In this document: positions 16,340 to 58,836 of the stretch, piece after piece
Numbering within the stretch: the stretch's first letter is position 1
How the letters are laid out: each line of letters starts with the position of its first letter
Program-made: the position numbers and the translations under genes
Notes under the pieces: model-generated
What the model saw: the letters and a program-made list of their open reading frames with translations, nothing else
The model's database searches: none
Told to the model about the DNA's origin: nothing
IMG/VR virus record: IMGVR_UViG_3300043177_000122
Span: 32,001 to 96,000 of that record
Strand: one strand, 5' to 3'
From: a virus
Taxonomy: Duplodnaviria > Caudoviricetes
Length of the DNA stretch: 64,000 nucleotides

Positions 16340-16764
16340 ATGAATACCAGTAACATACTCATTTTTATTTGCGTTTTATTGTGGGGAATAAGTTCATTCC
16401 TTAATAGGCTTTCTGTTGAACGAATGCCCCACTATTAATGCAAGTAATTGTTGGTTCTGTATTCTTTTTCTATATTCCAGTTGCCCTTAGATTGACTGGA
16501 GTAAATAATCCATTACATTACAAATGGTCGCTGTATAGTGTTGTGCTAACAGTATTTGCTACACTATGTTCTATTACGGCTAATATTTTATTATATACTA
16601 GTTTAAAAGGAAGTAATAGTTCAGGCTCATCTACAATGATGGTGGCACTTTATCCAATAGTAACTTTCATACTTTCAATCTTTATTTTACATGAACAATT
16701 TTCAATAATGAAGATAGTTGGAGTTGTTGTAATGTTATTAGGAGCTTACCTAATGACTAGGTAA
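16340..16764 (+). pseudogene. EamA/DMT-family small membrane transporter, frameshifted
   Basis: N-part ILIFICVLLWG... joins MQVIVG if one C is added at 16427-16430; ALYPIVTFILSIFILHE motif. Confidence 0.7.
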
Positions 16765-17070
16765 TTGCTTCTTTTTCTGAGGCTTGCCGCCCATCTTACG
16801 ATATACATCATAGACAACTGCCCAAGGCTCATCGTATTTTTTCCAGTACTTCTTGACAGTCTTCTTAGCTCGATTCCAGATTTTCTCATCTAAATCGTTT
16901 GTGTCTTGAACTTGGTTATTGTCTTTCTTTGCAATAGAATTAATGAATTCTCTTTCTTCTGGACTGAAATCAGAAGCTTTTTTGTCAGCAGGAGCATCAT
17001 TCTCATACTGCTCCTCAGCAAGTTTAATGATAAATTTCTCTGCCAATTCAGCCACTTTTTCGAAACTCAT
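16750..17070 (-). CDS. Small protein with shared N-terminal helix (SFEKVAELAEKFIIKLA) and C-terminal ChaB-like helix
   Basis: IWNRAKKTVKKY......WAVVYDVYRKMGG; leader similar to other minus-strand genes. Confidence 0.55.
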   Translation of the reverse strand: MSFEKVAELAEKFIIKLAEEQYENDAPADKKASDFSPEEREFINSIAKKDNNQVQDTNDLDEKIWNRAKKTVKKYWKKYDEPWAVVYDVYRKMGGKPQKKKQLPSH

Positions 17071-17092
17071 ACAATAATACAAGGATAATCAT

Positions 17093-17686
17093 ATGATAGA
17101 GAAGCCCATCATTGTAGGATGCGATGAGGTTGGTTATGGTTGTTTAGCCGGACCACTTGTGGTGGTTGGGGTGAGGACACCCAAAGATTGGCAAATCCCT
17201 GGCCTAAACGATTCTAAGAAATTGTCAGCTAAGAAACGTGAGGCTCTGAGGGGCCAGCTCCTTAAAGCAATTGAAAAAAATGAGATAGCTTGGCATTTAG
17301 CCGAACGATCTAACATTGAGATTGATAAAGCTGGGGTAGCTGTTGCGCTGAAGAGCGCATATGTTGAATGTTTTCATGCTTTGTATCAACAAGATTGCTT
17401 GATCATTAGCGACGGAATTCTAAAATTTGACAATCTCGGGGTCGATGATTATGATAAAGTTTCAGTCATCAAAGCGGACGCAAAATATCCAGCGGTAATG
17501 GCCGCATCGATATTGGCAAAGACCTATCGTGACGAAAAGATGAAGACACTACATCAGTTACACCCTTTATATGGATGGGAATCTAATGTAGGTTATCCGA
17601 CCAAGGATCATTTAGAGGCTATTGAAAGACATGGCCCGTGTCCACTTCATAGATTTTCATATGCGCCAATGAAGAATATGAAATAG
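17093..17686 (+). CDS. rnhB: Ribonuclease HII
   Basis: GCDEVG..C.AGP, DSKKL, SDG, KAD...PAV.AASILAK and GYPT motifs. Confidence 0.93.
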   Translation: MIEKPIIVGCDEVGYGCLAGPLVVVGVRTPKDWQIPGLNDSKKLSAKKREALRGQLLKAIEKNEIAWHLAERSNIEIDKAGVAVALKSAYVECFHALYQQDCLIISDGILKFDNLGVDDYDKVSVIKADAKYPAVMAASILAKTYRDEKMKTLHQLHPLYGWESNVGYPTKDHLEAIERHGPCPLHRFSYAPMKNMK

Positions 17687-17695
17687 GGTTTCAAA

Positions 17696-18194
17696 ATGGC
17701 AGCTATGAGAGTAGCATTTCTGATGGAACATCAAGAGATTACTGACATGGTTGAGATGAAGGCAATGGCTTTATTGCCAGTAGTGGATAAAGATCGCCCA
17801 GAACCTCCAGTTATCAATACAGAATCAGATGATTATTTGGCAGGCGCGTCAGACGCTCTTATTAGTTTAGTTGCTTGTTTAAAACAAAAGGCAGCCGATG
17901 AAAAAGGATTTTACAATTCTTATTAAGGAATTACGTCTTGCATTGCAAGCTGAGTTTAAATCAATTGTCTCTTCGGGATCTTCTATTGAAGAGGTAAGTC
18001 CCAAACTCTCGGAATTAGAAAATAAACAGGATACTATAATAAAAGAGGCAGGCTATGATCCAATTGAATTTCTTCAATTAATGAAGGAATACTTTATGGA
18101 TTTTTCATCACCCGATCCTAATGAATGGGTCATTAGACACGATCCAGAAAATGCGCAAATAATTGCAAGTAATAACTTATCCTACAAACACTAA
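17696..18194 (+). CDS. Two hypothetical proteins (17696..17926 and 17898..18194)
   Basis: ORF track, overlapping operon-like arrangement. Confidence 0.5.
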
Positions 18195-18227
18195 GCTATC
18201 AATAACGTGATATATAGATACACGTAT

Positions 18228-18302
18228 CTCGGCGTAGCAAATCGGATATGCGGCTGTTTCATACGCAGCTTTGAGTGAGTTCGACTCTCACCGCCGAGAC
18301 CA
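18228..18302 (+). tRNA. tRNA with CAT anticodon (probably elongator Met)
   Basis: Paired C1-G72, no triple G-C in anticodon stem (so not initiator), A73, CCA. Confidence 0.8.
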
Positions 18303-18304
18303 AA

Positions 18305-18703
18305 TTATCGCTGAGCGATTCCTGGTTGTGGTGTTTTGCCCGACCAATTCAAGGTGACTGTGCCCTCTGAAATTTGAGGGAAATCAGCAATGTGCCTGTC
18401 TAGGTATTTCTTGATCTGAGCTGGAAGCTTGGTATAATTTGTTGCGAATTGTGAAGGCTCAACTGTTGGGTTAGATACTTCAACACTTTTCCCGCCCATC
18501 ATTCCAGAAGAAATGGTAATAGTAAGACTTAAATCAGCCTGATCTTTTCTAAGCTGAGCAGGAAAGTTCATAATGCCATTAGCACTGGATTCTCCATAAC
18601 TTGCAGCATTTTCAATGATTTGCTGAAGGGTTTGAGATTCTTGAGCGTATTTGTTTTGAAATTTATCTGCTAGTTTAAGCAGTAGGGCTTGAGACTTTTT
18701 CAT
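18305..18703 (-). CDS. Hypothetical protein with shared N-terminal helix (LLLKLADKFQNKYA)
   Basis: ORF track; leader motif. Confidence 0.6.
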   Translation of the reverse strand: MKKSQALLLKLADKFQNKYAQESQTLQQIIENAASYGESSANGIMNFPAQLRKDQADLSLTITISSGMMGGKSVEVSNPTVEPSQFATNYTKLPAQIKKYLDRHIADFPQISEGTVTLNWSGKTPQPGIAQR

Positions 18704-18745
18704 AACAGATATACTACTTTAGTGGTATATAAGATACAAAAAAAT

Positions 18746-18820
18746 GGTCGATTAACTCAGCGGTAGAGTGACACGTTTACACCGTGTAAGTCGGGGGTTC
18801 GAATCCCTCATCGACTACCA
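18746..18820 (+). tRNA. tRNA-Val(TAC)
   Basis: Cloverleaf, CCA. Confidence 0.95.
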
Positions 18821-18823
18821 AAT

Positions 18824-18898
18824 TGGAGATTAGCTCAATGGTAGAGCGTCGGTTTTACACTCCGAAGATCTAGGGTTCGATTCCCTTATTTCCAACCA
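18824..18898 (+). tRNA. tRNA-Val(TAC), second copy
   Basis: Cloverleaf, CCA; minor stem mismatches. Confidence 0.85.
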
Positions 18899-18901
18899 TA
18901 T

Positions 18902-18975
18902 AGGCGATTAGCTCAATGGCAGAGCATCTGCTTGACTCGCAGGATACACGGGTTCGATTCCCCTATCGCCTACCA
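18902..18975 (+). tRNA. tRNA-Val(GAC)
   Basis: Cloverleaf, CCA. Confidence 0.88.
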
Positions 18976-18980
18976 CACAA

Positions 18981-20056
18981 ATGAGTAAGTTAAGCATTTT
19001 TGATGATGGCAAGAAGATTGCCCAGATTACACTGATTGATAACAAGAGTTTTCTCTTTGCTAAAACATCCAGACAATGGAGTGATATGAAGAGATTATTA
19101 GACGCTGCGGAGAAATTACATGAGGCCGACTCTATTATTGATGTATTAGAGAGTCTCGTGAAGATGCTTCATAGCTTTGATTATAGTGCGGAGTTAACAT
19201 AAATAATCATCCCACATTTAATATTGGCTCAGCATATGATAAACTCTATGAAGCCAATGGTAAAAAAGAAGTTATGCTAACTGTCCAAGAAGCTGACGAA
19301 CTTCTTGATTACCTTGAATACATAAGTTGGCTAATCAATCCTCCTGAAGGTATTGAATGGTATGACTATTTACAGTTGAGGAAACATGAGTGGAACTGTA
19401 GAAAATTTTGATGGACTTTGTGGTATTATTGCTAACTTTGCACATTCTGGTAACCAATTGCGTTGCCACTATGAACTGGGACATCATGGCCCGTGTTCAT
19501 TTGAGAAATATAAAGATCACTTCAGATGTCATGCTGGTTGTTTTTCAAGACCAGACCCTGAACGTGGATTTATAGATTCTGTTTTATCTCATCAAGATAA
19601 GGAAAACAATGGTTGACGAAAATAAATTTTGGGACTTAGTTAGAAAGTGGGAATTTGATACCAAATATACTTCCTCAGCAGCTCAGGTCCTTGGCCATAC
19701 ATCTGTGGCCGCTTTAATTCAGATGGGGCCTGAAATTATTCCATTAGCACTAAAAGCTATGAAAGACAACTTCCATTTAGCATTTGTTTTACATAAGCTA
19801 ACAGGAGATTGGCCAGTAAAGGACGAGCATAAAGGAAATGGACCAGCAATCATTGCCGCCTGGCGGAAATGGGCGCATCGACACGGCTACCAAGTCTAAG
19901 ATTCGTTTAGAAGATTATACATTAGGAATAAATTCTTGTAATGCTTGGAAGGATTATCATAATCCTTATCCTAAAGAAACTGAAGAGTATGATGCTTTCT
20001 ATACTGGATTTACAGATGCGCTAGATGATCTAGTGCATGCTTGGGGGCACTACTAG
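18981..20056 (+). CDS. Run of five short hypothetical ORFs (18981, 19199 with ATA in place of ATG, 19386, 19609, 19838)
   Basis: ORF track plus the open frame 19199..19411 behind a GGAG RBS. Confidence 0.45.
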
Positions 20057-20069
20057 TTGCTGAAAAATA

Positions 20070-20105
20070 AAAACGCGAGGTATTTAACCTCGCGTTTTCG
20101 TTTTT
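20070..20105. terminator. Bidirectional terminator between convergent genes
   Basis: AAAACGCGAGG...CCTCGCGTTTT stem flanked by A and T tracts. Confidence 0.8.
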
Positions 20106-20125
20106 GATTCAGTTAAGAATGCTGA

Positions 20126-21055
20126 TTAGAGCAATGCCCAGTTAGTACCGTCCCAAGCATAGGTTCTTTCAGAGGCATGTAAGTCAGTTGCACTGAAGCC
20201 GCCGAATAGAATTACGCGACCACCATTTTGGGTATCCCAGCACATTTGCGCTCCAACCAATCCTGGAGGAGATACGGCTGGTGCAGCCTTGGTCCAGGTA
20301 GTACCATTAAACAGCCAAGTTTCTGGTAGGTAATCATAAGCATTCATACCACCAAATAAAACCCATTGGCTGTTGTCACGGTCAAATGCCATGCAAGCGC
20401 CGGTTCTAGCAGATGGAGATGCTGCTGGCCCTAATTTAGTCCAAGTAGTGCCGTTCCAGGTCCAAGTATCATTCAAACACTCACCTGCGGAGTTTGTACC
20501 ACCGAATAGAAGAGTTACAGCAGCAGAGGAGTCCATTACGTGCCCAACTCTTGCAGATGGAGTAGAAGATGGGTTCATCTTAGTCCAGGTCTGAACATAA
20601 CCGTCCCAAACCCAAGTTTCACTAAGTAGTTTGCTGTTACCACCGTAACCACCAAACATAACTACATTAGTAGAAGATGTAGTAGAGCGGCATGCCTTAG
20701 CAGAGTGACGGCCAAATGGCGGATTGACTGGAGATTTTCTAACCCAAGTAGCACCGCCCCAAGTCCAGGTATCATCTAAGCCATTACCATTAAGTCCAGA
20801 GGAGTCTTGTCCTCCGAACAACATTACATTATAACCATCATAAGCCATACACTGATTGAGACGGCCTGGTAATGGGCCGTTGGCATCGAATAAAGAAGTT
20901 CCAACGTTGGTCCAGTCAGTACCGTTCCAGGTCCATGTCTGGTTGCCAAATTCTGAGACGCCAGGGTAAGCGCCAGCATCTAGTAGAACTACTTCACTTG
21001 AGCCACGTTGTACCATAGCTGAATTTGCGCAACGAAGTGGAGTTGTAGTTGTCAT
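20126..21055 (-). CDS. Kelch/beta-propeller repeat protein
   Basis: Repeated LFGG...DTWTWNGTTW...P.AR.G units; strong RBS AAGAGGA. Confidence 0.85.
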   Translation of the reverse strand: MTTTTPLRCANSAMVQRGSSEVVLLDAGAYPGVSEFGNQTWTWNGTDWTNVGTSLFDANGPLPGRLNQCMAYDGYNVMLFGGQDSSGLNGNGLDDTWTWGGATWVRKSPVNPPFGRHSAKACRSTTSSTNVVMFGGYGGNSKLLSETWVWDGYVQTWTKMNPSSTPSARVGHVMDSSAAVTLLFGGTNSAGECLNDTWTWNGTTWTKLGPAASPSARTGACMAFDRDNSQWVLFGGMNAYDYLPETWLFNGTTWTKAAPAVSPPGLVGAQMCWDTQNGGRVILFGGFSATDLHASERTYAWDGTNWALL

Positions 21056-21149
21056 ATTATCCTCTTTAAGTGAATCAAAAACTTAAAAGCCTATTTGTAT
21101 GGCATATAAGTGATAGAATAATTTTAGCTAATTTTTAACATTTTTAGAC

Positions 21150-21178
21150 TTGACAAGTTTATTTAGTCGACTTAAGAT
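21150..21178 (+). promoter_or_regulatory. sigma70-like promoter
   Basis: TTGACA-N17-TAAGAT before the tRNA-Gly cluster. Confidence 0.6.
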
Positions 21179-21213
21179 ATTTTAGGCATAAGGTGATATA
21201 ATTATTACCGTAA

Positions 21214-21288
21214 GCGGAAGTAGCTCAATGGTAGAGTCCCTGCCTTCCAAGCAGGCTGTTGTGAGTTCGAATCTCATCTTCCGCTCCA
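21214..21288 (+). tRNA. tRNA-Gly(TCC)
   Basis: Cloverleaf, U73, CCA. Confidence 0.95.
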
Positions 21289-21298
21289 GAGTAAGTAA

Positions 21299-21988
21299 AT
21301 GTCTTATGATTATTCTCTGGTTTTAAAGTCTCTTAATGAGAATCCAAAAATTGGGTATTATATACTTGGCGTATTTATTACTGATGGTTCTGTCCGATTT
21401 AAAACAGAACATGAAGCAACTGAGTGTGCTCTTTTTTCTAGAGATGGCGATTGGATCCAACTTATTAGTGATACTTTAGGTGGCGCTACGAAGGTCATAC
21501 CAAAAGATAATGGATACAGAATTAGATTTTGGAATAAAGAAATTTTTGATTGGTTTGTAGGGCGTGGTTGTTTACCAAACAAATCTTTGAATGCTGAGTT
21601 TCCTAAAATTCCAGATCAATATCTTCCAGACTTTCTTAGGGGATGTATTGATGGTGATGGATCTATAACATATACGAGTTATAAAAAGAATGGGAGATCA
21701 TATCCTAAAGTAAACACTTACTTATGTGGCAGCTCAATTTCTTTTCTAAAAGAGTTTGAAATTATCCTTAGAGCTAGGGGTATTAATTGTTCCTTTATAG
21801 AAAAGAAAAATAAAGCGTCTCATGCAATTCAATATAAACACCCCCATTATCGTGTTGTAATGAACGACTCTAGAGCTTGTAAGTTTTTAGAGTGGATTTA
21901 TTACCCCAACCACAAACTTTCTATGCCCCGCAAAAGGGAGCTGGTAGCAAAAATATTAGGTGATAACTTGTTTAAAAACAAGGCATAA
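21299..21988 (+). mobile_element. Free-standing LAGLIDADG homing endonuclease
   Basis: Two motifs, YILGVFITDGS and FLRGCIDGDGS; lies between tRNA-Gly genes. Confidence 0.88.
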
Positions 21989-22011
21989 TGTTATATGTTT
22001 AATGAGATTAA

Positions 22012-22086
22012 GCGGATATAATTCAGTGGTAGAATGTCTGCTTGCCAAGCAGAATGTCGAGGGTTCGAGCCCCTCTATCCGCTCCA
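22012..22086 (+). tRNA. tRNA-Gly(GCC)
   Basis: Cloverleaf, U73, CCA. Confidence 0.95.
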
Positions 22087-22213
22087 AGACGAATGTAGAT
22101 AGGATTACATGGTTAATGCGGCGGGTTTTACCTGCTTAGCTAAAGATGGTTCGAGCCCATCGAATAGTTCGAAAGGACTATATAAAAATCTTATCGCCCC
22201 TTGTCGTCTATAA

Positions 22214-22288
22214 GCGGCCATCTTCTAATGGTCAAGAATTCTGGTCGCCATCCAGAGAATGTCGGTTTGATTCCGACTACCCGCTCCA
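22214..22288 (+). tRNA. Degenerate tRNA-Gly(GCC)-like gene
   Basis: Cloverleaf with C33, T loop TTTGATT and two acceptor mismatches; U73 and CCA kept. Confidence 0.6.
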
Positions 22289-22310
22289 CTAATTTTAATT
22301 TGGGATTACA

Positions 22311-22634
22311 GTGATTGAGATATGTAAGTTTTGCGGTAACGCTTTAACTAGCGATCATGAATTAGGATCTTTATTTAGATCAAAATGGACATGCGACAAG
22401 TGCAAACAATATTCAGTTGTTTGTCTGGGTAATGGATCTATAGAAACAGAAACAGAAACATTACGTTCTGGAAATTTTTATATTGTTTATATACCTGCAT
22501 ATAAAACTGCTAGCATTGTATCTACCCAGGATACAGATAAGAAAATTCTAAAGTCTTTTGACATGGACGAGTTTACCCCAGAGCAAGCCGCTCATTGGGC
22601 AAAGAAACTTAAAACATACGTTTTGTTTCAGTAA
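22311..22634 (+). CDS. Hypothetical zinc-ribbon protein
   Basis: CKFC...CDKC. Confidence 0.5.
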   Translation: MIEICKFCGNALTSDHELGSLFRSKWTCDKCKQYSVVCLGNGSIETETETLRSGNFYIVYIPAYKTASIVSTQDTDKKILKSFDMDEFTPEQAAHWAKKLKTYVLFQ

Positions 22635-22752
22635 CGTTTATGTGAAAAGATATATTAGTGGAGCAAGAGAATTACGTCCGATTTTGTAAAAATATGGACC
22701 GGCTTGACTCTCAATCTCTAGGATTTACATTGCTATAGACAAGGAATATACT

Positions 22753-23655
22753 ATGAGTAATACAGAGCTAATTAGAGAGCTAAGAGCATTGACGTCAGCA
22801 GGGATGAAAGACTGTAAGGATGCACTTGAAGAATCCAATTGGGATTTGCAAAAGGCTGTTGATATTGTTAAGGTGAAGGGCCTCAATATTGCTGACGGTC
22901 GTACTGGACGTGTAGCCTCTGAGGGGCGTGTTGGTACTGCTGATACCCAAGATGATAAGCTTTATGTAATGGCCGAAGTTAATTGTCAAACGGATTTCGT
23001 AGCTAACAGCAAAGAGTTCAGGAGTTTTACTATTCAAGTTTTATCTTCTATTATGGAGTCTCATTTGACTGGTCAGACATGGTCAGTTGATAAAGTGGAA
23101 GAACTTCGAAAAGAAATTGTATCAAAAACCAAAGAGAATGTTGTTATTCGTAGATGGTGGATTGAGGAATCTCAGTCGCCACTTGTTCGAGTTTTCTCGT
23201 ACAGGCATTCTACTAGTAAAATTGCTGTATTGGTTACACTTGTGGCCCCAAATGAAGCTGCTGCTGACTCCGCGGAGTTTAAGACTCTCGGAGAGGAGCT
23301 GGCAATGCAAATTGCTGCTATGAATCCAGTTGCAGTTGATGCCGAACGCATTCCACAAGACGAGAAGGATCGTCAAAAGGCAATTTTTGAGATGCAACTC
23401 AAAGAGGAAAATAAGCCAGAGAAAATGTGGGAAAAGATTATGGAAGGCAAGTTCCGTAAGTGGAACACAGAAGTTTGTTTGCTTGAGCAGGAGTCGGTAG
23501 TTATACCCAAGACGACTGTAAGACAAGTGATTAAGAATGTTGGAACTAAGTTGGGTGGAGAAATTCAAGTTGTGAATTTTGTTCGCTGCCAAGTTGGTGA
23601 AGGTATTGAAAAGAAACAAGACAACCTCGCTGAGGAAGTTTCTAAAATGATGTAA
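22753..23655 (+). CDS. tsf: Elongation factor Ts
   Basis: LRALTSAGMKDCKDAL, EVNCQTDFVA, LAMQIAAMNP, FVRCQVGEG; promoter TTGACT-N16-TACATT at 22704-22731. Confidence 0.97.
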   Translation: MSNTELIRELRALTSAGMKDCKDALEESNWDLQKAVDIVKVKGLNIADGRTGRVASEGRVGTADTQDDKLYVMAEVNCQTDFVANSKEFRSFTIQVLSSIMESHLTGQTWSVDKVEELRKEIVSKTKENVVIRRWWIEESQSPLVRVFSYRHSTSKIAVLVTLVAPNEAAADSAEFKTLGEELAMQIAAMNPVAVDAERIPQDEKDRQKAIFEMQLKEENKPEKMWEKIMEGKFRKWNTEVCLLEQESVVIPKTTVRQVIKNVGTKLGGEIQVVNFVRCQVGEGIEKKQDNLAEEVSKMM

Positions 23656-23730
23656 AGGTACCAATGACGAAACTGGATAAAGAAGCGGCAACTATTCAAC
23701 GATTGATTGATAATGGTAAGTTACTTGAAA

Positions 23731-23780
23731 AAAGATTTGCCCCTGTTAATTCTTGAAAGATTTGCCCCTGTTAATTCTTG
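23731..23780. repeat. 25-bp perfect tandem duplication
   Basis: aaagatttgcccctgttaattcttg x2. Confidence 0.95.
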
Positions 23781-23801
23781 AGGGTCTTGCTTTAGAAACG
23801 G

Positions 23802-25093
23802 TTGCTCATTGGCACAAGATATATAAACGGAAGGAAAAATAAGATGACTAGTGATGTAACTCAATTAATTGACAAGCTAACTAATGCTGTGTCTTTCAAA
23901 TATGCTGAGGATGCTACTTCTCCAAATGTTACCATCTCTAAGTTGCGTAAAGGATACTACTGTTCAGTAGTTCGTTATGCTAAGAGTGGTGCAACGCAGA
24001 AGAAGGTTGTTGTTTGTAATTCTAAAGCAGACAACTTGGAAGATGCAGTAAAGGGCGTAGTTACTGCTTTCTTGAAAGTAGCTCAGCCACAACTAGATCC
24101 TCTCCATGAATTGGATAAGTTAGCTAATGGATAAATCAAGCACTTTAGAAGAGTGCATGATAGCGCTCAATAAACTTCTTCACCCAGAGGACCAGGTGGA
24201 GCTTTTGAAGATGTCGAAAGATGATCTTATATCGCTTCATCATGGCCTTGGTCAGTGGATTAGAAATAATTGTGGCCTTTGGGAAGAATTGGATTTATTC
24301 CATCACATGAAATCTCTGGGATTCGTTCATCAAGACGATATGTCTCAAGCCATCATTGTTGAGTATTGGAATAGATTACATAACCAACCTTCTCAGTTAG
24401 AAGAAGATATTACTCATAGTAAAGCGTACTGGGAGGAACATGGATCGAAAGACTCTGCTTAAGGAAATGAAAGAATCGGTTGGAACACAAGAGCCAGTTG
24501 TTTTCTTTGCAAAAATGGTTGATGTATTAAATCTTTTGTTTGACCGCATCGACTCTTTAGAACAAGATGTCGCTGAAACCAAAATGAATGCCGCTCTTGC
24601 TATTCATTGGGAACCGAAAGTTGCTCGATCAATGATTACAGAACAAATTGATATACTTCGAGCTGATAAAGAGTCTTATGTAGAAGAGATCTCTGCTTTG
24701 AAAAAAGCTTTTATTGAAGATAAGGTCACACAAAACTACAGTGAATTCTGTTCCTTCTGGGAGGGAACTCTAGGCTTCCATCCATTTTTGGATTACAGAT
24801 GAAAAATACTATTGATGCATTTCACGATCTTATTGTTCATCTTCTCTTCTCTGACCGATGGAGAAATAAAGGACCAGGTAAGGTTGTAGAAAGTATGCCA
24901 GCGGAAGATCGTGAGGCCCTTTCTCAACTCAAATCTGATGATATTTCTCCTGAAAAAGCAAGAGTCGAAGACTATTGGATGATATTGCAAACGATTTTGT
25001 AGAAGTAGACAAACGCCAGTGGGCCAGCCCTTCAAAAAAAAAGATTGGTAAAAGAAAACTAGCGTTAGCAGGGTATATGTTAGACGAAACCAT
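23802..25093 (+). CDS. Run of hypothetical proteins (23802, 24127 DUF6794-like, 24440, 24799 frameshifted near 24972)
   Basis: ORF track; HHGLGQWIRNNCGLW in the 24127 ORF. Confidence 0.5.
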
Positions 25094-25167
25094 TCAGGGC
25101 TCGTCTAACGGCAGGATAGAGGACTCCGACTCTTCAGATATTGGTTCGAATCCAATGCCCTGAACCA
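25094..25167 (+). tRNA. tRNA with CCG anticodon (nominally Arg) on a Gln-like body
   Basis: TCAGGGC/GCCCTGA acceptor (U1-A72), loop CT-CCG-AC, T arm ATTGG/CCAAT, CCA; C rather than A at position 20. Confidence 0.85.
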
Positions 25168-25572
25168 ATGCTATCAAGTATTAAGTTTGATTTTCAGGCT
25201 GATAGTGCTGAAGACTTTGAAATATTCAAAGTTTTATTCATAAGAAATGCCGGCATTGCTCAGATGATATACGATTTTTATCTGGGTGACGTGTTAATAC
25301 GTTTGCAGTGCTCATCGATTAACGATTATCAGTTAGTTGGTATTGGATTTTTTCATTACTCCAAACAGGGAAACAGCGTTTCATTAGAACAATTTAATCC
25401 TCTTCAAGATATCAGGTTTACTAATTTTAATGAAATCAAACGCTTATGGTATATTACCGAAGCGTGGGCTTTCTTAAGTTACAGTCCTGAAAATGCCGAA
25501 TCATCATTTAGTATGATTCATGACGTACTAAAAATAGTCGCTAGAATCAATAATTTGAAAGCTTTTTTGTAA
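25168..25572 (+). CDS. Hypothetical protein
   Basis: ATG immediately after the tRNA CCA. Confidence 0.5.
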   Translation: MLSSIKFDFQADSAEDFEIFKVLFIRNAGIAQMIYDFYLGDVLIRLQCSSINDYQLVGIGFFHYSKQGNSVSLEQFNPLQDIRFTNFNEIKRLWYITEAWAFLSYSPENAESSFSMIHDVLKIVARINNLKAFL

Positions 25573-25573
25573 T

Positions 25574-25975
25574 ATGAAGTCAATTGGTAAACTGGTATAC
25601 GATCCAAGAACGCATTTAGCCTCTTCGGATCGCTGGCTAGTATTGATGTGTGATGACGAGATTTCACACTATTATCGTCATCTGTATACCAAGGAATATC
25701 CATATCTGAATGGTGAGAAAACTGGCAAGTTAACTCGTCCAGTGTGGGGTACACATATTTCAATCATTCGTGGAGAATATATTCCAAAATACAAATTGTG
25801 GGGTCTTAATGCTAACAAATTAGTTGAATTCACTTATGAACCAGGTGTCATAGATAATGGTGAGTATTACTGGCTAAAAGTTGTTTGTCCAGAACTTCAA
25901 GACTTGCGGGAGAAATATGGACTGCCTCGCGAACCTCGATTCGGCCTGCACTTAACTATTGGAAGAACTACATAA
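25574..25975 (+). CDS. 2H phosphoesterase (2'-5' RNA ligase-like)
   Basis: Two HxS/T motifs, THIS and LHLT. Confidence 0.75.
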   Translation: MKSIGKLVYDPRTHLASSDRWLVLMCDDEISHYYRHLYTKEYPYLNGEKTGKLTRPVWGTHISIIRGEYIPKYKLWGLNANKLVEFTYEPGVIDNGEYYWLKVVCPELQDLREKYGLPREPRFGLHLTIGRTT

Positions 25976-27048: not shown

Positions 27049-27056
27049 GGTCACCA

Positions 27057-27888: not shown

Positions 27889-27890
27889 TT

Positions 27891-49333: not shown

Positions 49334-49559
49334 ATGTCATTGAAAAAATGAAAATGACGCACTTCGAAAACGTAGTGGTACAGTCAAAATCAATAGTAAG
49401 TTGGTAAGTTTCCTTTATGAAATAATGAGGGATCATTTGCCAACTGGTACAGTCGAAGAAATAGTTCGAGCATCAGAGCAAGAATCAGAAGTAATTTATA
49501 CTAATGGTTGGCTTGCACAATATGCTGAAGATTTAGCAAACCGCCTGAAAGATAAATAA
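49334..49559 (+). pseudogene. Hypothetical protein, frameshifted
   Basis: Extra A at 49343-49348; removal gives MSLKNENDALRKRSG... Confidence 0.55.
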
Positions 49560-49567
49560 GAGAAAAT

Positions 49568-51064: not shown

Positions 51065-51535
51065 ATGAATATTTTTGTGTTAGATACAAATGTAAAACTA
51101 GCCGCCCAGGCTCATGTTGACAAGCATTGCGTCAAAATGATTTTAGAAACAACGCAGCTACTTAATAATGCGTTGATTGTTGGATCCCCTGGTTATCAAC
51201 CGGTGTATAAACAAACACACAAAAATCATCCATGTAGTATTTGGACAACTGAGTCTGTTGATAATTTTAATTGGCTAAATAATCTTGGGCTAGCTCTTTG
51301 TGAAGAATATACGTTTAGATACAGCAAAACACATAAATGTCAGCCAATCCTAGAGCAATTTTCTTCTCTTATCGGCACATTAACTTTGCCCAAAATTGGC
51401 ATGACTCAATTTCAACTTTGTATGCCAGACCAATACAAAGTTGATGATCCTGTAGAATCATATCGTAATTACTATCGTGGTGATAAGGCATACATTGCAA
51501 AGTGGTCTAAACGCGAAAAACCTACTTGGTGGTAA
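51065..51535 (+). CDS. Pyrimidine dimer DNA glycosylase (DenV-like family)
   Basis: MNIFVLD, HVDKHCVKMILE, THKNHPCSIW, YRNYY..DK. Confidence 0.85.
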   Translation: MNIFVLDTNVKLAAQAHVDKHCVKMILETTQLLNNALIVGSPGYQPVYKQTHKNHPCSIWTTESVDNFNWLNNLGLALCEEYTFRYSKTHKCQPILEQFSSLIGTLTLPKIGMTQFQLCMPDQYKVDDPVESYRNYYRGDKAYIAKWSKREKPTWW

Positions 51536-51559
51536 AATATATTACGTTGAATATCAAGT

Positions 51560-51783
51560 TTATAGAATATGATTCCAAGTAATTTTTCTAACGGCTCGTG
51601 AAATTGCTGACTCGCTCACATTATTATCAAAACCATATTTTCTAATGCTTTGATAAAGAGGTTTTTGTTTAGTTTTGTAAAAGCTTCATACTTATGACGA
51701 CTCCATCATCTTTTAAGATTATTGGTTTGCCCAACATAAAGCTTTGAATTAATATTATTGCGAATAATATAGATGTAATACAT
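51560..51783 (-). pseudogene. GIY-YIG endonuclease remnant
   Basis: RBS AGGAG, MYYIYIIRN...LYVGQTNNLKR*WSRH, then a frameshift/deletion to ...SESAISRAVRKITWNHIL*. Confidence 0.75.
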
Positions 51784-51804
51784 GCCTACTCCTATATTAC
51801 ATTA

Positions 51805-52317
51805 TTGATAGGGTGTGGTGGTGCAGGTGATGTTTTGATTGAAATAATTACAGGCGATTTTTTGGAAGCCAAAGAAAAATATATTGTACACCAGACTAAC
51901 TGTATCTCTACTAATGGGGCAGCCGGGATTGCGAAGGATATTTTCGATAAATATCCTTATGCAGACTGTTACGTATCTCGCACCGAACCAAGTAAGCCCG
52001 GTACAATTGATATCCGTGGCAACGGATTAGATCAAAGATTGATTGTTAATCTTTACGGTCAGGTTTATCCTGGGCGATGCAGATACCCACTTTCAAGTTT
52101 AGATGGACTGGTAGCTCGTGAGAAATACTTTTACCACGGGTTACTACGTCTGGCCAAGATTGAGGGGCTGGAAAGTATAGCATTGCCGTGGAGGGTGGGG
52201 TGTGGGATCGCTGGTGGGAACTGGGAACATTATCTTGGAACAATTAATAATTTCGCTCAATATGTTAAGGAAAAGGGCGTTGATGTTCGCATCTATCGTC
52301 GTTCAGGAGACGAATAA
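51805..52317 (+). CDS. Macrodomain protein (TARG1/DarG/Poa1p-like class)
   Basis: IITGD, HQTNC...GAAGIAKDIF..YP, PGTI, VNLYGQ, GCGIAGGNW. Confidence 0.88.
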   Translation: MIGCGGAGDVLIEIITGDFLEAKEKYIVHQTNCISTNGAAGIAKDIFDKYPYADCYVSRTEPSKPGTIDIRGNGLDQRLIVNLYGQVYPGRCRYPLSSLDGLVAREKYFYHGLLRLAKIEGLESIALPWRVGCGIAGGNWEHYLGTINNFAQYVKEKGVDVRIYRRSGDE

Positions 52318-52666
52318 TGTCTGATGAAAAGAAAAAGTCTTATCTAGACTATGATTTCAAAAATCAAGAAGCTCCATATCAAGCGGCCAAGACAAATATT
52401 CAATCTGAGATCGATGAGATTCACAAGGCCACTAAAGCTAATGGTACTCGTCTTCTTGAACAAAAAGTTACTATGCGCCCGGATTGGGATCTCAGATTTT
52501 GTTTAAATCTTTGATGACAGGCAGAAAATATCGTATGTTCATTTCTGATTTTCATGACATGATGCTTACAAAAAAGATGCAAGATAATGTTATTGAAGGC
52601 GAATTTACCTTTGTTAAAAAGGGCAGAGTGCAGGGATTTAGAATGATCCTGCCGCCCGCACCTTGA
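52317..52666 (+). pseudogene. Hypothetical protein, frameshifted
   Basis: Adding one G near 52486-52488 gives ...RPDW-GSQILFKSL. Confidence 0.55.
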
Positions 52667-52726
52667 CTTTAATTATTGAAAATACAGATTTAGTTATTAG
52701 CCGCGTAGCGGTGTAAGGAGAAACAA

Positions 52727-53161
52727 ATGTCTAATTTGGAAGATACAGTTCGTTCGGTTGTGCAGGATTTCATTAATCGTGAAGTTCTTTTCACGGCATT
52801 GGATGTTAGCAATTCGGTCAAGCAGAGCTTGCCCCAAGTTCGTCATCGTGAAGTGAGGGATGTTGTTCGTAGCATTTTCTCTACTGAGATTGAGACTCAA
52901 GGTTGGGCTCGTACGCCTATTACCGTAACCTTAGGTGATGGTACTGCGGCCGAAGCCCTCTTGTATCACCCATTAACTGACTCTTGGGATTTGGATAACA
53001 AATATAATACTCAGCAACGTCAAGCGGTCCCAGTCCGCCCAGTGCAGCAAGCTCAGGCTACAATCGCCGCACCCGCTCCTGTTGCAGTTCCTCTTCCAAC
53101 CGCCCGCACACTTTGGGACAGTTTGTTTCAGACACAACCATCTCTTTTCCCCAAAAAGTGA
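52727..53161 (+). CDS. Hypothetical protein
   Basis: RBS AAGGAG; ORF track. Confidence 0.6.
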   Translation: MSNLEDTVRSVVQDFINREVLFTALDVSNSVKQSLPQVRHREVRDVVRSIFSTEIETQGWARTPITVTLGDGTAAEALLYHPLTDSWDLDNKYNTQQRQAVPVRPVQQAQATIAAPAPVAVPLPTARTLWDSLFQTQPSLFPKK

Positions 53162-53164
53162 TTT

Positions 53165-53970
53165 ATGCAGCGCAATATAATTCTGTATCGAGGCATTGAC
53201 TTCGAAAAGGAAGAGTTGAGCGAAGCACACCAATTCTTTGAATGTACTAGACGCCGCCCAGATATTCGAAAGGACGATCTAGTTATTGGCAGGTATTCGC
53301 TTTTACCTTTCTATTTGGAACGGGCCAAAGACATTCAGTATGTAGGTGCAAAGCTGATTAACGATTATCAGCAGCATCGCTACATTGCTGACCTACAGAA
53401 CTATGTTGTTGATCTTTAAGAGTTGACTCCACGTATTTGGACGAGTCCTGCTGACTTGCCAGATAAAGGTCAATTCGTCCTAAAAAAGGCGAGACTAATT
53501 CTCGTAAGTCTAATTGGAAGCGAGATATGTTTGCGCCCGACAAAAAAGCTGCAATTGAGGTCTATTCTAGATTAATGGACGATAGTTTAATCTGACAGCA
53601 GAATATTTACATCCGCCGGTATGAACCTATGGTAACATACCTAGAAGGAGTTAATGGTATTCCGATTACCAAGGAGTTTAGATTTTTTATTTCCTATGGA
53701 CAAATTCTGAGTAGTGGTTACTATTGGGCTAACTATATTGATCAGTTGCCTGAAGTCCCATCTCCTGATGAAGTTCCTCGTGAATTTTTGCAAGAAGTTA
53801 TTGAGCGTGTTGGTAATCAATCTAACTTCTATACCATTGATGTAGGGCAATCAGTTTCTGGTAAATGGTTTGTAGTAGAATTGAATGATGGGCAACAAGC
53901 TGGGCTTTCATGCAATGATCCATTTACGCTATATAAGAATCTAGATAAAGCTATCAGAAATAAAAATTAA
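53165..53970 (+). pseudogene. ATP-grasp (R2K-like) pseudogene
   Basis: In-frame TAA (53417-53419), +2 frameshift in the A run near 53482-53487, in-frame TGA near 53593; motifs KGETNSRK, EFRFF, YTIDVG...VELNDGQQAG. Confidence 0.75.
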
Positions 53971-54572
53971 GTCTTAGTTTTATCATCAGGGCCGAGTTTA
54001 TTTTCTGGCCCTAGAAAGCTTCTTCTAGCCGCTGGTGGTGGTTCAGTTGGAGTTTCTGAGCCGGCACTTCCTGGTGGAACAATAAGAGGATGTTGAATCA
54101 TATAATCTTTTAGTTCAGTTGCTAACTGTTTCAAAGCATCAATACTACGAATCTGTGGATGCTGTAGTTGAGTACTGGTAACAAAATCTTCGTTAGTAAT
54201 TTTTAAATGGTGTTTAGCTAGAAAGTCTAAATTATCCAATATAATTTTAGTAGACCTATCAAAAACATACTGAACCAGCTTTTCAGCGGCCCTATAAGGT
54301 TTATCCTCTTGTATACTCTTGTTAATAGTAATTAGTTCTTGGTAAGTTTTTGCAAATAACGCGAACATTTTGTGGTCAAACTTACGCTCTTTGAGCATAT
54401 AAAGATTCCCGCCCATTTCATTAATAATAATGCGTAGTTGTCTAGTGAAATGGTCATAAAACTTAGAAAGTCTATTGCGCTGTTCTTGATACTGCTTATT
54501 GTTTGGAGAAGTGCCTTTATCAGCTAGAGTGACGAAATTTTCAGCCATTTCTAAGATTTTTTGGATAGACAT
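53967..54572 (-). CDS. Hypothetical protein with shared N-terminal helix (SIQKILEMAENFVTLA)
   Basis: ORF track; AATAA-N3-CATATA upstream on the minus strand (54589-54602). Confidence 0.6.
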   Translation of the reverse strand: MSIQKILEMAENFVTLADKGTSPNNKQYQEQRNRLSKFYDHFTRQLRIIINEMGGNLYMLKERKFDHKMFALFAKTYQELITINKSIQEDKPYRAAEKLVQYVFDRSTKIILDNLDFLAKHHLKITNEDFVTSTQLQHPQIRSIDALKQLATELKDYMIQHPLIVPPGSAGSETPTEPPPAARRSFLGPENKLGPDDKTKT

Positions 54573-54591
54573 TTAGTTACCTAATAGTTAT

Positions 54592-55422
54592 ATGAAATTA
54601 TTCAATACTATTCAAGAGCTGTGGGATTATTGCAGGTATTGTCCCATTTGTACAAGAAATTGTCGCGAGGTAATGGTTTCTGTAGGGCCAGACTTTTCTT
54701 TCATTCTAATTTCTCATTCTAAAAAAGATACAAATTTAGTTTTACAATGTATGTATAAAAGAAAGGGTGACATCTATAACGTTGACTATCAAATTAACTG
54801 TATAGATAATACCTTTCATATTACAGAGCCTAAAGTGGTTCAATTGGCAACTGAACTTGCCAAGCCAGAAAAAGTTAAAGAAGCCTATTTCTATTTCTTT
54901 ATTGAGGGTTTGTGTAATGAGTGTAATAGCTCGTCCACAAATAGTCAAGATTTAGAATTTGATTTGGAGGGCGGAACGATTTCTAATATGGGTCTAGAGC
55001 GTGAGAATTTTTATCTCTTTGAGACAGAAGAAAAATTCCATATCACTTCCATTCACGACCGCAATATAATGCTGGTCAGCCGCCTCTATCAAAACGGGGA
55101 AATTAGCTTCTCTGAGAGCAAGACGATAGAATTACCTATAGTTAAACTTGATCTTTCTGATCAAGCAAAAACTGTTAACAAGCTTAAAACTTTAATTCTG
55201 TTTAGTTGAAAGGAAATCATGTCTACTTTCAGTGATGCAAATCAGGTGCGCCTTTTGTTAAAAATGAAACTATCTGTGTACGCATGGTATAGCTCCAGTA
55301 CAGTCGTTTCTATAGACGATGGTTTTGGTGTTGTTATTGGCGTTAAGCAGATGGATAATTCTATTCGGAAACTAATCCCTCCGGTTGTCAATGACATTTC
55401 TGTGAAGGCAGAAGTAGAATGA
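54592..55422 (+). CDS. Two hypothetical proteins (54592..55209 with Cys pairs; 55219..55422)
   Basis: ORF track. Confidence 0.55.
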
Positions 55423-55462
55423 AAATCAAACGTATTTCAGATCAATTTGTTAGGAATTTAAG

Positions 55463-56134
55463 ATGCGACTTTGCCATATTAGCGATACTCACGGCAAATT
55501 TCCTTGTCTCTATGGGCGATATGATGCCGTTATCCATACGGGAGATCTATTCCCAAACAGCAATGCTGTAATGGTCGGTGATCGTAATGCAGAAATGTCG
55601 TACCAACTCAAATGGCTGCGTAATAGTATGGAAGAAATAAAGTCCTGGCTGCAAGACCATCCATTTTTGTATGTTCCTGGTAACCATGACTTTTTACCCT
55701 CCAGTCTAATGGAATTTGAAATGCGTAGCGCTGGACTAGAAGCTTTTGATTTAACAGACAAAACGCTTATGTTCAAAGGTGTAAATTTCTATGGTTTTCC
55801 ATACGTACCATATATTTCTGGTATGTGGAATTACGAGCGCCATTTTCCCGAAATGCAAAAAGAAGTTGACAAAATGGTAACAGTAATCAATAAGGAATTT
55901 GTTGATGTTATTGCTTGTCATGCTCCGCCCTATAAACAGCTTGACCTAACCATGGGTAATAAGGTTGTAGGTTGCCAGACAATGGCTACGGCGCTAGACT
56001 ATAAGATCAGCAAAGATATGATGCCTTCATATTTCTTGTGTGGTCATATCCATGAAGCTAATGGAATGTCTGTTCGCAATGGAATGATGATTAGCAATGC
56101 GGCGACCACGCGACATATTATAGAAATAATATAG
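55463..56134 (+). CDS. Calcineurin-like metallophosphoesterase
   Basis: ISDTHG, HTGD, PGNHD, CHAPP, GHIHE. Confidence 0.9.
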   Translation: MRLCHISDTHGKFPCLYGRYDAVIHTGDLFPNSNAVMVGDRNAEMSYQLKWLRNSMEEIKSWLQDHPFLYVPGNHDFLPSSLMEFEMRSAGLEAFDLTDKTLMFKGVNFYGFPYVPYISGMWNYERHFPEMQKEVDKMVTVINKEFVDVIACHAPPYKQLDLTMGNKVVGCQTMATALDYKISKDMMPSYFLCGHIHEANGMSVRNGMMISNAATTRHIIEII

Positions 56135-56999
56135 TAATAAAAGGTTGAATGTACAGTTTACGCTATGAATGCCAAGGAAGCTCGCAAAAAACTTACCTCT
56201 TCTAAACCCTGGAATAAGACAAATACAGAAGATGAAATTTCAAGAATTGAACTTGATAATTGGAAAATCCTTGTTTCTCCTAAGGAGATATCATGAAGGT
56301 CAAACCTAAAGAAGTAATGGTGAATCTCCCGGTGGCTCTTCTATTTGATGAGCCCTGGGAGATCATCTCCTTTGCCGCTAATATCAACACAATTCTACAC
56401 GGCAAAGTCAAATTGAAAGTTGAAGAGCTGGGTACACTTGGTGGAAGGCATGTTGGTATTTTCTACCTTGATCGTAATGGTGAGTATCATCAGATTCGTG
56501 ATGAATTCGTTCGTTTGATTGAGCAAGAAGAGATTGTGAATCATTCACCTCCAGCTTTAAGTGAAGAGGATCGGATTGCTGAACAATATGATGAGAATTT
56601 TGGTGACAATAAGCTTTGTTTATGTGGTCACCCTTATTATCGTCATTTTGACACTTATGATCATATGTCAGCTATAGGTTGTAAGTATTGTTACAAATAT
56701 ACTGACAGGCACGTCCTTGATAAAGAGTGCCCATACTTTAAAGAGCAGAAAGATTCTACGGCAGATAAACATCCAAGAGAAGAAGACAAATATGCTCATG
56801 GTCTGTGCCCAGATTGTGATGAGTATTCTATGCTCCATCAAAAAGGAGAAGACCATTGCCGATGCGGTAGCGAAATAAATAATGGCGTTTGTGAGGTTTT
56901 AAGGAAGCAATATGCGTAAACATCAAGTTACTTTTTATAGTCCTGGAACTTTTGTATCTGAAGCGACCACTCGCGATATCGATAGCTGGGATACCACAC

Positions 57000-57407
57000 C
57001 CAACTTATCTTCATGTCTGCCGTCAAATTGACCAAACCCTTAAAGACCTAAAGCCATAGAAAGTAATCTCGGGCATGGCTTTAGGAGTGGACCAATGGGC
57101 AGCTAACATTGCATATAAGCTGGGCATCCCTTTTATTGCCGCTGTGCCTTTTGAGGGCCAGGAGAAGGCGTGGCCCGAGCAATCCCAGAAAGTATTTAAT
57201 ATATTGATTGGAAAGGTCGCAGAGGTGGTTATCGTCAGCCCCGGAGGTTACACTGCTTACAAGATGCAAGTTCGTAACGAGTGGATGGTTGACAGGGCGG
57301 ATAAGGTCATTGCTATTTGGGATGGAACGCCCGGTGGAACTGGCAATTGTGTAAATTACGCCAAGTCTAAAAATAAGGAAATTATTTTTATTAACCCGCG
57401 CGGTTGA
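57000..57407 (+). pseudogene. YspA/SLOG-family protein, 5'-truncated, with an in-frame TAG
   Basis: KP*KVISGMALGVDQWAA, AVPF.GQE, RNEWMVD, GGTGNCVNYA; joined by an apparent deletion to ORF start 56912. Confidence 0.75.
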
Positions 57408-57469
57408 CCCGACGAAAAACTGTGTTACATTGGGCAACTCTAGCAATAAAGATATATAGTAACACTATT

Positions 57470-57555
57470 GCCGAAGTGGTGGAATGGCAGACACAGAAGT
57501 CTCAAAAACTTCCGGGCGCAAGCCCATGTGGGTTCGACTCCCACCGTTGGCACCA
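57470..57555 (+). tRNA. tRNA-Leu(CAA)
   Basis: Cloverleaf, long variable arm, CCA. Confidence 0.93.
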
Positions 57556-57585
57556 ATTCATTTCTAATTTTGATTAAATAATATC

Positions 57586-58047
57586 ATGAATCTAAAGAAT
57601 TTGTTGACCTTGACAATTCGCACCATGGATTTTAACTTGGTTGCGCAACAGCCAGAGCTTTTAGCAAAATTACGGAAACTTACACTAGATCCCTCTTCTG
57701 GAATGAATCATGAGTTGGATCGAATGTTAGAAGATGTAAAAACCCGTTCTGTTAATTGTACAGTTATTTTGGCTTATCGATTTAGTACATTAGTAGGTTG
57801 GAGCATTCTTTCTAAGGAAAATACCACCTACCATTTCTCGCGTGCTCCTGATGGATTTAATGCCGAACATGGTGTTATGTTTCAAGTCTTCGTAGACCCA
57901 GAGTACCGGCGCCAAGGTATTGCAACGGAACTTTATAAAAAGGCTCAGGCACTAGCAAAAACGGAATTGATCTATGTTTGCCCATGGGATACAAGAAGTC
58001 GTTTTTTCTATGAAAAATTCCCTGATGTCAAAACTAAATGGATGTAA
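57586..58047 (+). CDS. GNAT acetyltransferase
   Basis: VFVDPEYRRQGIATELY. Confidence 0.85.
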   Translation: MNLKNLLTLTIRTMDFNLVAQQPELLAKLRKLTLDPSSGMNHELDRMLEDVKTRSVNCTVILAYRFSTLVGWSILSKENTTYHFSRAPDGFNAEHGVMFQVFVDPEYRRQGIATELYKKAQALAKTELIYVCPWDTRSRFFYEKFPDVKTKWM

Positions 58048-58082
58048 TATCTAGTAATAATAGGTTATATACAGTACACGAT

Positions 58083-58166
58083 GCGGATATGGTGGAACGG
58101 CAGACACAGCAGTCTTAGAAGCTGCCGCCGAAAGGCGTGAGAGTTCAAGTCTCTCTATCCGCACCA
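58083..58166 (+). tRNA. tRNA-Leu(TAG)
   Basis: Cloverleaf, CCA. Confidence 0.95.
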
Positions 58167-58195
58167 AAGTAAGATGAAGTATTCGAAAGTATTAC

Positions 58196-58282
58196 GTTCA
58201 TGTGGTGGAATGGCAGACACACCAGTCTCAGAAGCTGGCGTCCGTAAGGACATTGAGGGTTCGACTCCCTCCAGGAACACCA
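58196..58282 (+). tRNA. tRNA-Leu(CAG)
   Basis: Cloverleaf, CCA. Confidence 0.9.
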
Positions 58283-58285
58283 AAT

Positions 58286-58371
58286 GCGGTTGTGTCGTAA
58301 TGGCAGCCGAGCTAGAATGAGAGTCTAGTGCCCGAAAGGGCGTGTGGGTTCGAGTCCCACCAACCGCACCA
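58286..58371 (+). tRNA. tRNA-Leu(GAG)
   Basis: Cloverleaf, CCA. Confidence 0.93.
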
Positions 58372-58440
58372 GTGATTAAATATTCTAAAGAGTTATTAGA
58401 AACTGCATCTCAAGCAGATGCTACTTAATCGTGAGAAGAT

Positions 58441-58836
58441 TTAAGAATATTTCTTAAGTAGTGAGTCAGTAACTTCAACACAAGCCTTCTTGGATTTCTT
58501 TTCAGATTTTCCAATACTTGGATACTTAGAATGAACTTTACGGCTGACTAAGTCCTGCAAACCTTTGAGACTTCCTGAGTACCAGGGTGGAGCAGAACTA
58601 TACTGATGGACGCGGGCCAAAGCATTACGTGCTTGATCTTCGTCATTAATTGGGAAATGGTCCTTCTTATCCTTAGCAGACTCAGCGGGCACACAAACGG
58701 TGCCTCTATTACGCACCTTAGCTTTAGGATCAAGTTTCTTCTTGTCCTTCTTCTTAGCTTCAGTCATTAAAGAATTGATAGCTGTTTTTTCAAAAGCAAT
58801 TGCTTGCTCTAAAACCTGTTCGACGTTATTTATCAT
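58441..58836 (-). CDS. Small basic protein with shared N-terminal helix (VEQVLEQAIAFEKTA)
   Basis: HFPINDEDQARNALARV core; coupled to the upstream ORF. Confidence 0.6.
   Translation of the reverse strand: MINNVEQVLEQAIAFEKTAINSLMTEAKKKDKKKLDPKAKVRNRGTVCVPAESAKDKKDHFPINDEDQARNALARVHQYSSAPPWYSGSLKGLQDLVSRKVHSKYPSIGKSEKKSKKACVEVTDSLLKKYS

Follow-up and report, generated by a model that had tools for sequence, protein, structure and literature searches.

A shared N-terminal leader on otherwise unrelated small proteins of an uncultivated huge phage: a possible head-loading tag

Introduction

Why do four genes that run against the prevailing direction of a phage genome, and whose products seem to have little else in common, begin with the same short pattern of amino acids? 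The question is raised by a stretch of 64,000 nucleotides (hereafter the window) of the IMG/VR virus record IMGVR_UViG_3300043177_000122. An earlier note on this DNA, made from the sequence alone, had listed four minus-strand open reading frames (ORFs) with a common amphipathic N-terminus, here called the leader, and had read the leader as a capsid-targeting signal. All four ORFs, designated P0001 to P0004, were present where the note had placed them and with the N-termini that it had quoted.

The window corresponds to bases 32001-96000 of a single contig of 358,993 bp, with 38% G+C and about 465 ORF calls, 85% of them on the plus strand and 15% on the minus strand; the window alone holds 25 tRNA genes. 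Matches to PHROG families identified a major capsid protein (genome 230225-231238), a portal protein (genome 207907-209790) and a large terminase (genome 205945-207828), and the contig is therefore the genome of a huge tailed phage. The public sequencing runs that contain this phage are freshwater metagenomes, and no RNA run is listed among them. Ten related records, with capsid proteins 78-98% identical to the one encoded here, were scanned as well, and many homologues of the four protein families lie on contigs of 200-510 kb from uncultivated huge phages.

Results

The leader is shared at the level of protein families

The leader is about 20 residues long and follows the consensus M-S-x-x-K-[ILV]-[LA]-x-[LM]-A-[DE]-x-[FY]-x-x-(K)-h-A or, in a looser form, S-x-x-x-[ILV]-[LA]-x-[LM]-A-x-x-[FY]-x-x-(K)-h-A. 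The likeness of single leader sequences was near noise, whereas the likeness of family profiles was far beyond chance. With single sequences, a leave-one-out hidden Markov model (HMM) retrieved P0001 and P0003 (ranks 3 and 7) and failed to retrieve P0002 and P0004, and the best leader pair, P0001 with P0003, had an ungapped BLOSUM62 score of 38, a value that was reached two to three times by shuffled N-termini. For the profile test, family alignments were converted to profiles and each leader was slid ungapped over the other three families from end to end. The best match was the leader of the other family, in identical register, in 11 of the 12 ordered pairs, and in the remaining pair it ranked second. 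Unguided alignment with MAFFT placed 42 leader segments from the four families in the same register, and the leaders were the sole local alignments obtained with hhalign for P0004 against P0003 and for P0002 against a fifth protein, described below.

A six-frame scan of the whole 359-kb genome with the leader HMM gave exactly five matches, each of them at an initiator Met. The fifth bearer scored 13.1 bits with a combined leader HMM from which it was absent, and the runner-up anywhere scored 5.7. An enlarged model, read at a threshold of at least 7 bits, matched six N-terminal windows and none of 2732 internal windows; the sixth N-terminal window belongs to a weakly matching protein of the head gene block (genome about 195-237 kb), encoded at genome 212604-213356, whose orthologue was part of that model. 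The leader copies differ in their codons, the likeness being one of protein and not of nucleotide sequence, and the leader is therefore not an RNA element.

The common start of the four genes was thus confirmed by the profile tests, the unguided alignment and the six-frame scan. The glutamate of the earlier consensus, which the looser form given above improves on, is not conserved across families: L-A-E or M-A-E stands in mid-leader in the P0001 and P0003 families, and L-A-D or a variable sequence in the others. The earlier note had expected an HMM scan to return many matches enriched in late or structural regions. The matches in the genome were N-terminal but few, with five to six bearers and one weak case in the head block. 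The claim that no plus-strand ORF starts in this way did not survive, because the fifth bearer, a protein of 135 amino acids (aa) with the leader at its start Met, is encoded on the plus strand outside the window (genome 328530-328937). It lies directly downstream of a collagen-like protein of 558 aa and has no close relative in IMG/VR.

The four proteins of the window differ in what follows the leader. P0001 (window 16750-17070, minus strand, ATG at 17070; 106 aa) carries the leader in residues 1-22 (window 17005-17070, minus strand; six-frame scan E 5.9e-7), followed by a variable linker, a C-terminal Trp/Lys-rich module of 35 residues and a Lys tail. Lys16 and Ala18 of its leader are conserved at 90% or more in the family alignment, and the family comprises about a dozen full-length homologues together with many proteins that have the C-terminal module alone. 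P0002 (window 18305-18703, minus strand; 132 aa; 104 homologues) has its leader in residues 1-23 (window 18635-18703, minus strand; HMM E 9.3e-9), with Lys18 and Tyr19 conserved at 90% or more, then a short break and a compact alpha/beta body. In P0003 (window 53967-54572, minus strand; 201 aa; 32 homologues) the leader occupies residues 1-20 (window 54513-54572, minus strand; HMM E 1.3e-7) and precedes a linker of variable length, a helical-bundle body and a disordered Pro-rich tail; Phe13 is invariant in the family, and Met1, Gln4, Met9 and Ala17 are conserved at 90% or more.

P0004 (window 58441-58836, minus strand; 131 aa; 419 homologues) consists of the leader in residues 1-23 (window 58768-58836, minus strand; HMM E 4.5e-5), a Lys-rich linker and a nearly invariant core, LDPKAKVRNRG..DHFPIN..QARNAL.RV. 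The leader consensus of its family (..EQLL.LA..FE.LA) is closer to the common motif than the copy in this phage. The core matched DUF6582 (PF20223) at 16.1 bits and E 0.015, below the curated Pfam cut-off of 27.3 bits, and phrog_16160 at E 0.002-0.004, again below the curated cut-off; DUF6582 is present in 13% of the members of an atlas neighbour cluster. All five bearers are basic, with pI values of 8.7-9.7 compared to a genome median of 6.55. No bearer matched a curated family: searches with the four proteins gave no Pfam or PHROG family beyond weak matches, PDB sequence searches were empty, and atlas look-ups added no useful information. No paper describing the leader motif or DUF6582 was found in the literature.

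The leader is a separate and transferable element

In the ten relatives, 19 leader matches were obtained at E <= 1. Seventeen of these start at the Met of an ORF and are mostly orthologues of the four families, but three new and mutually unrelated bodies also carry the leader (loci L067, L064 and L068/L075). One of the three is the orthologue of the head-block protein at genome 212604, and one leader bearer in the relatives has a Cys-rich body. The two remaining matches were C-terminal and internal, respectively. The C-terminal one, which is the sole terminal match that is not N-terminal, is a leader-like segment, KLLELAKQFEKIS, at the end of an ORF of 466 aa (locus L066, G003:C1:27457-27507).

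Insertions and deletions concentrate right behind the leader in every family. In one P0002 homologue the junction of leader and body holds 28 additional residues, and in one P0004 homologue an insert of about 50 residues separates the leader from the core. AlphaFold2 (AF2) models of P0002 and P0003 contained a helix in residues 4-18 with a predicted local distance difference test (pLDDT) score of about 50-60 (about 50 over residues 1-20 of P0002), then a break (residues 17-21 in P0003), and then a body with pLDDT above 90, which was modelled as alpha/beta in P0002 and as a helical bundle in P0003. Searches of PDB with the two models gave no fold match at E <= 0.001, and a wide fold search with P0002 gave only weak matches, to TolA/TonB C-terminal domains at Z of about 4. 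The leader is amphipathic, with a heptad-like spacing of L, A and F and a net charge of -3 to +4. Its columns are conserved about as well as those of the body in the P0002 and P0003 families and less well in the P0001 and P0004 families. The N-terminal position on unrelated bodies, the indels at the junction and the detached helix indicated that the leader is a separate, selected and transferable element.

The bearers are isolated counter-strand genes

Four of the five bearers are on the minus strand, compared to 15% of all ORF calls (binomial estimate P ~0.002), and these four are singletons, or in one case part of a two-gene unit, within blocks of plus-strand genes. The relatives keep the orientation of the bearers, and two of the new families found there are likewise encoded by lone genes on the counter strand; in a 490-kb relative, the homologues of P0003 and P0004 occupy the same counter-strand positions between the same neighbours. 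Three of the genes are separated from their divergent neighbour by 19-25 nt or by tRNA genes, and they lack the AGGAG-type ribosome sites seen before the head genes. P0001 and P0003 start 22 and 19 nt, respectively, from divergent plus-strand starts (an RNase HII-like ORF and an ORF of 205 aa; window 17070-17093 and 54572-54592), and their promoters therefore lie inside the coding sequence of these neighbours.

Orthologues keep short AT-rich elements 12-30 nt before the ATG. The 11-mer TATACCACTAA, an instance of TATAC[CT]ACTAA, lies 15 nt before P0002 (window 18719-18729, minus strand). The same pattern occurs on the plus strand at genome 195569 and 234751, where it precedes the opening gene of the head block and a cluster of structural paralogues by 49-57 nt. 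There were six matches in the genome against about two expected, and the pattern is a no more than suggestive candidate for a promoter element shared with the structural operons. Relaxed matches to the 11-mer showed no enrichment genome-wide (67, against 87 in shuffles), and the upstream elements are at most putative late promoters.

The two-gene unit is formed by P0004 and an ORF of 262 aa upstream of it (window 58826-59614, minus strand), which overlaps the start of P0004 by 11 nt, has no leader and is paired with P0004 in the same orientation in the 490-kb relative. This ORF had no Pfam, PHROG or PDB sequence match; it is conserved and contains an HEVLE motif. Another minus-strand gene of the window without the leader encodes a Kelch-repeat beta-propeller protein of 309 aa (window 20126-21055; Pfam E 3e-25).

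A body module of P0001, and possibly one of P0004, occurs in head proteins

The C-terminal third of P0001 (window 16750-16890) is a module, W..AKK..KYWKKY.EPWAVV..VY.KMGG, that has no Pfam family and recurs in 84 proteins. Two of these proteins, P0319 and P0332, are long; they are head-maturation protease or scaffold proteins of other phages, and their modules are 63% and 60% identical to that of P0001, respectively. PHROG assigns P0319 to the head maturation proteases (phrog_530, E 1e-64) and Pfam places it in PF09979, and P0332 is a Mu gpI-like protease. P0319 also starts with DUF6582/phrog_16160, the family weakly matched by the core of P0004. The exemplar of PF09979, gp24 of phage Pa193, after which the family is named, is present in virions and was seen on the inner surface of the capsid, where it was modelled at the vertices (PMC11456595). 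Free-standing module genes adjoin a MuF-like gene or fall between a probable portal gene and scaffold-like genes.

A weak leader also stands at the start of a head-block protein family (genome 212604-213356), both in this phage and in a relative. The N-terminus of the major capsid protein is variable but retains K-[YF]-A, as at the end of the P0002 leader. A head location is plausible for P0001 and P0004 from these comparisons, because the P0001 module and, by weak matches, the P0004 core recur in head proteases, because of the PF09979 precedent and the gene neighbours, and because of the K-[YF]-A motif. A PHROG scan of additional ORFs of the head block returned the portal and the large terminase, and a protease was not found among them. 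A predicted complex of the capsid protein with residues 1-45 of P0002 scored 0.00, which is below the mark and carries no weight either way. As a general N-terminal signal, K-x-A was dismissed on its mere 1.36-fold enrichment across the genome.

Across the module proteins (P0259-P0342), the module W..AKK.V.K.W..Y.EPWAVV..VY.KMGG is common at the C-terminus of small phage proteins. Eight of these proteins, from other phages (P0294, P0303, P0317, P0321, P0328, P0333, P0334 and P0341), begin with a helix of the form M-x-x-D-x-K-K-L-A-A-F-A-K-K followed by a Lys/Pro/Ala-rich linker, and this helix may be a second, related type of leader.

Two further observations concerned the capsid genes of the relatives. 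In one of them the match to the capsid gene is split into two segments, separated by about 1 kb and a stop (G003:C1:219798-221869, loci L086 and L087), which suggests an intron or a homing-endonuclease insertion. Extra copies of a partial and diverged kind of the capsid protein, 34-58% identical, were found far from the head block in two others (G008:C1:44843-45424 and G010:C1:29838-30116, loci L094-L096).

Discussion

A head-loading role and the points against it

In the mechanism that we propose, the leader helix would stand outside the fold of the body and dock its bearers onto one common partner. That such a common partner exists is probable. The likeliest partner would be a component of the assembling prohead (the scaffold or core, the portal region or the inner shell), with the leader bringing a few fixed accessory proteins into the head in the manner of the T4 capsid-targeting sequence (CTS) or of an encapsulation peptide; we regard this as a serious possibility, if one a little short of an even call. 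The head protease may then clip the leader near its h-A or K-x-A end, a step that is the least supported of the scheme and is doubtful. The isolated counter-strand islands among early/middle-type genes suggest that the bearers would be timed separately from these neighbours. Injection of the bearers into the next host is speculation.

Taken as a whole, the proposal is tentative: in this clade of huge freshwater phages a dedicated helical address tag of 20 residues, unrelated to the T4 CTS, may load a small accessory set, including free-standing head-protease and scaffold modules, into the prohead and be clipped there at h-A or K-x-A. The bearers, as single counter-strand genes whose very short 5' leaders are devoid of Shine-Dalgarno sites, would make up a regulon with a timing of its own, and the tag would be a portable handle by which foreign proteins could be packaged into the heads of huge phages. 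What stands of the capsid-targeting reading of the earlier note is the shared, modular N-terminal signal on unrelated bodies, which is conserved across the clade; the link to the head is indirect and runs through the body modules of P0001 and P0004. The broader idea of a family-wide system that loads many late proteins was not borne out, as each genome has just five to six bearers and the head block, apart from one weak case, is not enriched in them.

Several results weigh against a head-loading role. Neither P0002 nor P0003 has any head link and the fifth bearer has no comparable one, and the link for the other two consists of two fused proteins among the 84 module bearers together with sub-threshold matches to DUF6582. 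With one weak exception, the leader HMM misses the head-block proteins, the capsid protein and the portal among them. Peptidase_S77, the T4 gp21 type of protease (PF03420), had no match at E <= 1 when the genome was scanned in six frames, although a remote homologue is possible. Only the P0001 and P0002 families keep a Lys-x-Ala end, and K-x-A is no more than 1.36-fold enriched near N-termini genome-wide. A collection of cultured phages also contained no DNA or protein match to the region, to P0004, to the P0001 module or to the N-terminus of P0319.

Comparison with known targeting peptides

The closest comparison is with phage T4, in which the CTS on the internal proteins IPI, IPII and IPIII and on Alt also takes foreign proteins to which it is attached into the head (Mullaney & Black 1996; see the review PMC9026906). 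Like the leader, the CTS is a short peptide at the extreme N-terminus of otherwise unrelated small basic proteins, and it is modular, with bearer genes outside the main cluster of head genes. The two differ in length (about 20 residues for the leader and 10 for the CTS), and the leader has no sequence similarity to MKTYQEFIAE. The T4 peptide ends in an (L/I)-x-Glu protease site, whereas the leader ends in h-A, with Lys at -2 in two families only; packaging and cleavage have been shown in T4 and are hypothetical for the leader. The leader is thus an analogue and not a member of the T4 CTS class, because it has no (L/I)-x-E end and the six-frame scan found no PF03420 protease.

Among the huge phages phiKZ, 201phi2-1 and SPN3US, head and ejection proteins are known to carry N-terminal propeptides, some of them short and of leader-like length, and some substrates of SPN3US have N-terminal propeptides of 20 and 24 residues (PMC10052503, PMC5694885). 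These propeptides are set by an A/S/G-x-E cleavage motif and share no helix (PMC10052503, PMC5694885), and these three phages have no relationship to the present clade. The leader can also be likened to helical elements that bind the inside of the capsid, as in gp24 of Pa193 (PF09979/DUF2213) and in the helix-turn-helix of the P22 scaffolding protein (PMC11456595), and the PF09979 member P0319 shares accessory modules with the body of P0001 and, by weak matches, with that of P0004. In contrast, the leader is a single N-terminal helix and not a helix-turn-helix within a scaffold, and the link to gp24 runs through the bodies and not through the leader.

The architecture also has a counterpart outside phages. 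The encapsulation peptides of bacterial microcompartments are terminal amphipathic helices of about 18 residues, joined by a poorly conserved, flexible linker to unrelated cargo, and the cargo-loading peptides of encapsulins, which are mostly C-terminal, dock inside a protein shell of the HK97 fold. The arrangement seen here is identical to that of encapsulation peptides (a helix in the AF2 models, indels at the junction and unrelated bodies), and the comparison is one of how the element might work. The compartments and the sequences differ, the leader is N-terminal, and its shell partner is only putative.

Alternative explanations

The leader could instead be a tag for a common partner outside the capsid, such as a chaperone, a multi-substrate modifying enzyme, a protease that times turnover or a host hub protein. 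A detached helix with a linker would suit any docking function, and a partner of this kind would sit well with P0002 and P0003, which lack a link to the head. There is also a precedent, cited in PMC10052503, in the N-terminus of a T4 head protein that directs proteins to GroEL, and one relative has a Radical_SAM gene about 3 kb away from its P0003 homologue. We nevertheless consider a partner outside the capsid unlikely, because no candidate enzyme consistently adjoins the bearers, whose genes are dispersed through the genome, and because two of the bodies, one of them by weak matches, recur elsewhere as modules fused to proteins of the head interior.

It is improbable that the helix serves self-association or surface binding, either as a short coiled coil joining the five bearers into homo- or hetero-oligomers or as an in-plane membrane helix. 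Its amphipathic character and heptad-like spacing would fit such a role, as would its being unpacked from the body in the predicted models. However, at only about 15 residues the helix is on the short side for a stable coiled coil, and a net charge that ranges from -3 to +4 is unlike that of membrane-targeting helices, which are cationic as a rule. Specific positions, namely two Ala sites and one aromatic residue, are moreover kept across unrelated families, which argues for one defined receptor rather than generic amphipathicity.

Less probable still is descent of the families from one ancestral small protein, as highly diverged paralogues in which the helix is the best-kept remnant. All bearers are small and basic, and hhalign aligned P0001 with P0003 over 82 columns at 76% probability. 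The bodies, which the earlier note had called unrelated, are so by hhalign for most pairs, but a remote link between these two is possible. The other family pairs align over the leader alone, and P0002 and P0003 differ in predicted fold, alpha/beta in the one and a helical bundle in the other. Common descent is also difficult to reconcile with the occurrence of the P0001 body module, without the leader, inside unrelated proteins, or with the further bodies that bear the leader in relatives, including the Cys-rich one.

Finally, chance resemblance among generic amphipathic N-terminal helices chosen by eye is very improbable, for although the single-sequence tests were weak, with two of four leaders missed and the best pair score seen in shuffles, the profile tests, the five genome matches that are all N-terminal and never internal, the independent fifth member and the new N-terminal members in relatives all speak against it.

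Implications for huge phages

Almost nothing is known of how the very large heads of uncultivated huge phages are assembled and filled. A conserved, transferable N-terminal tag singles out a concrete set of proteins with one presumed partner. If the leader is a head-loading tag, capsid targeting in the style of T4 would extend to an unrelated and environmentally widespread clade, and it would become clear why modules that small phages fuse to their head proteases occur here as free genes. If the partner lies outside the head, the tag would still be a new docking motif.

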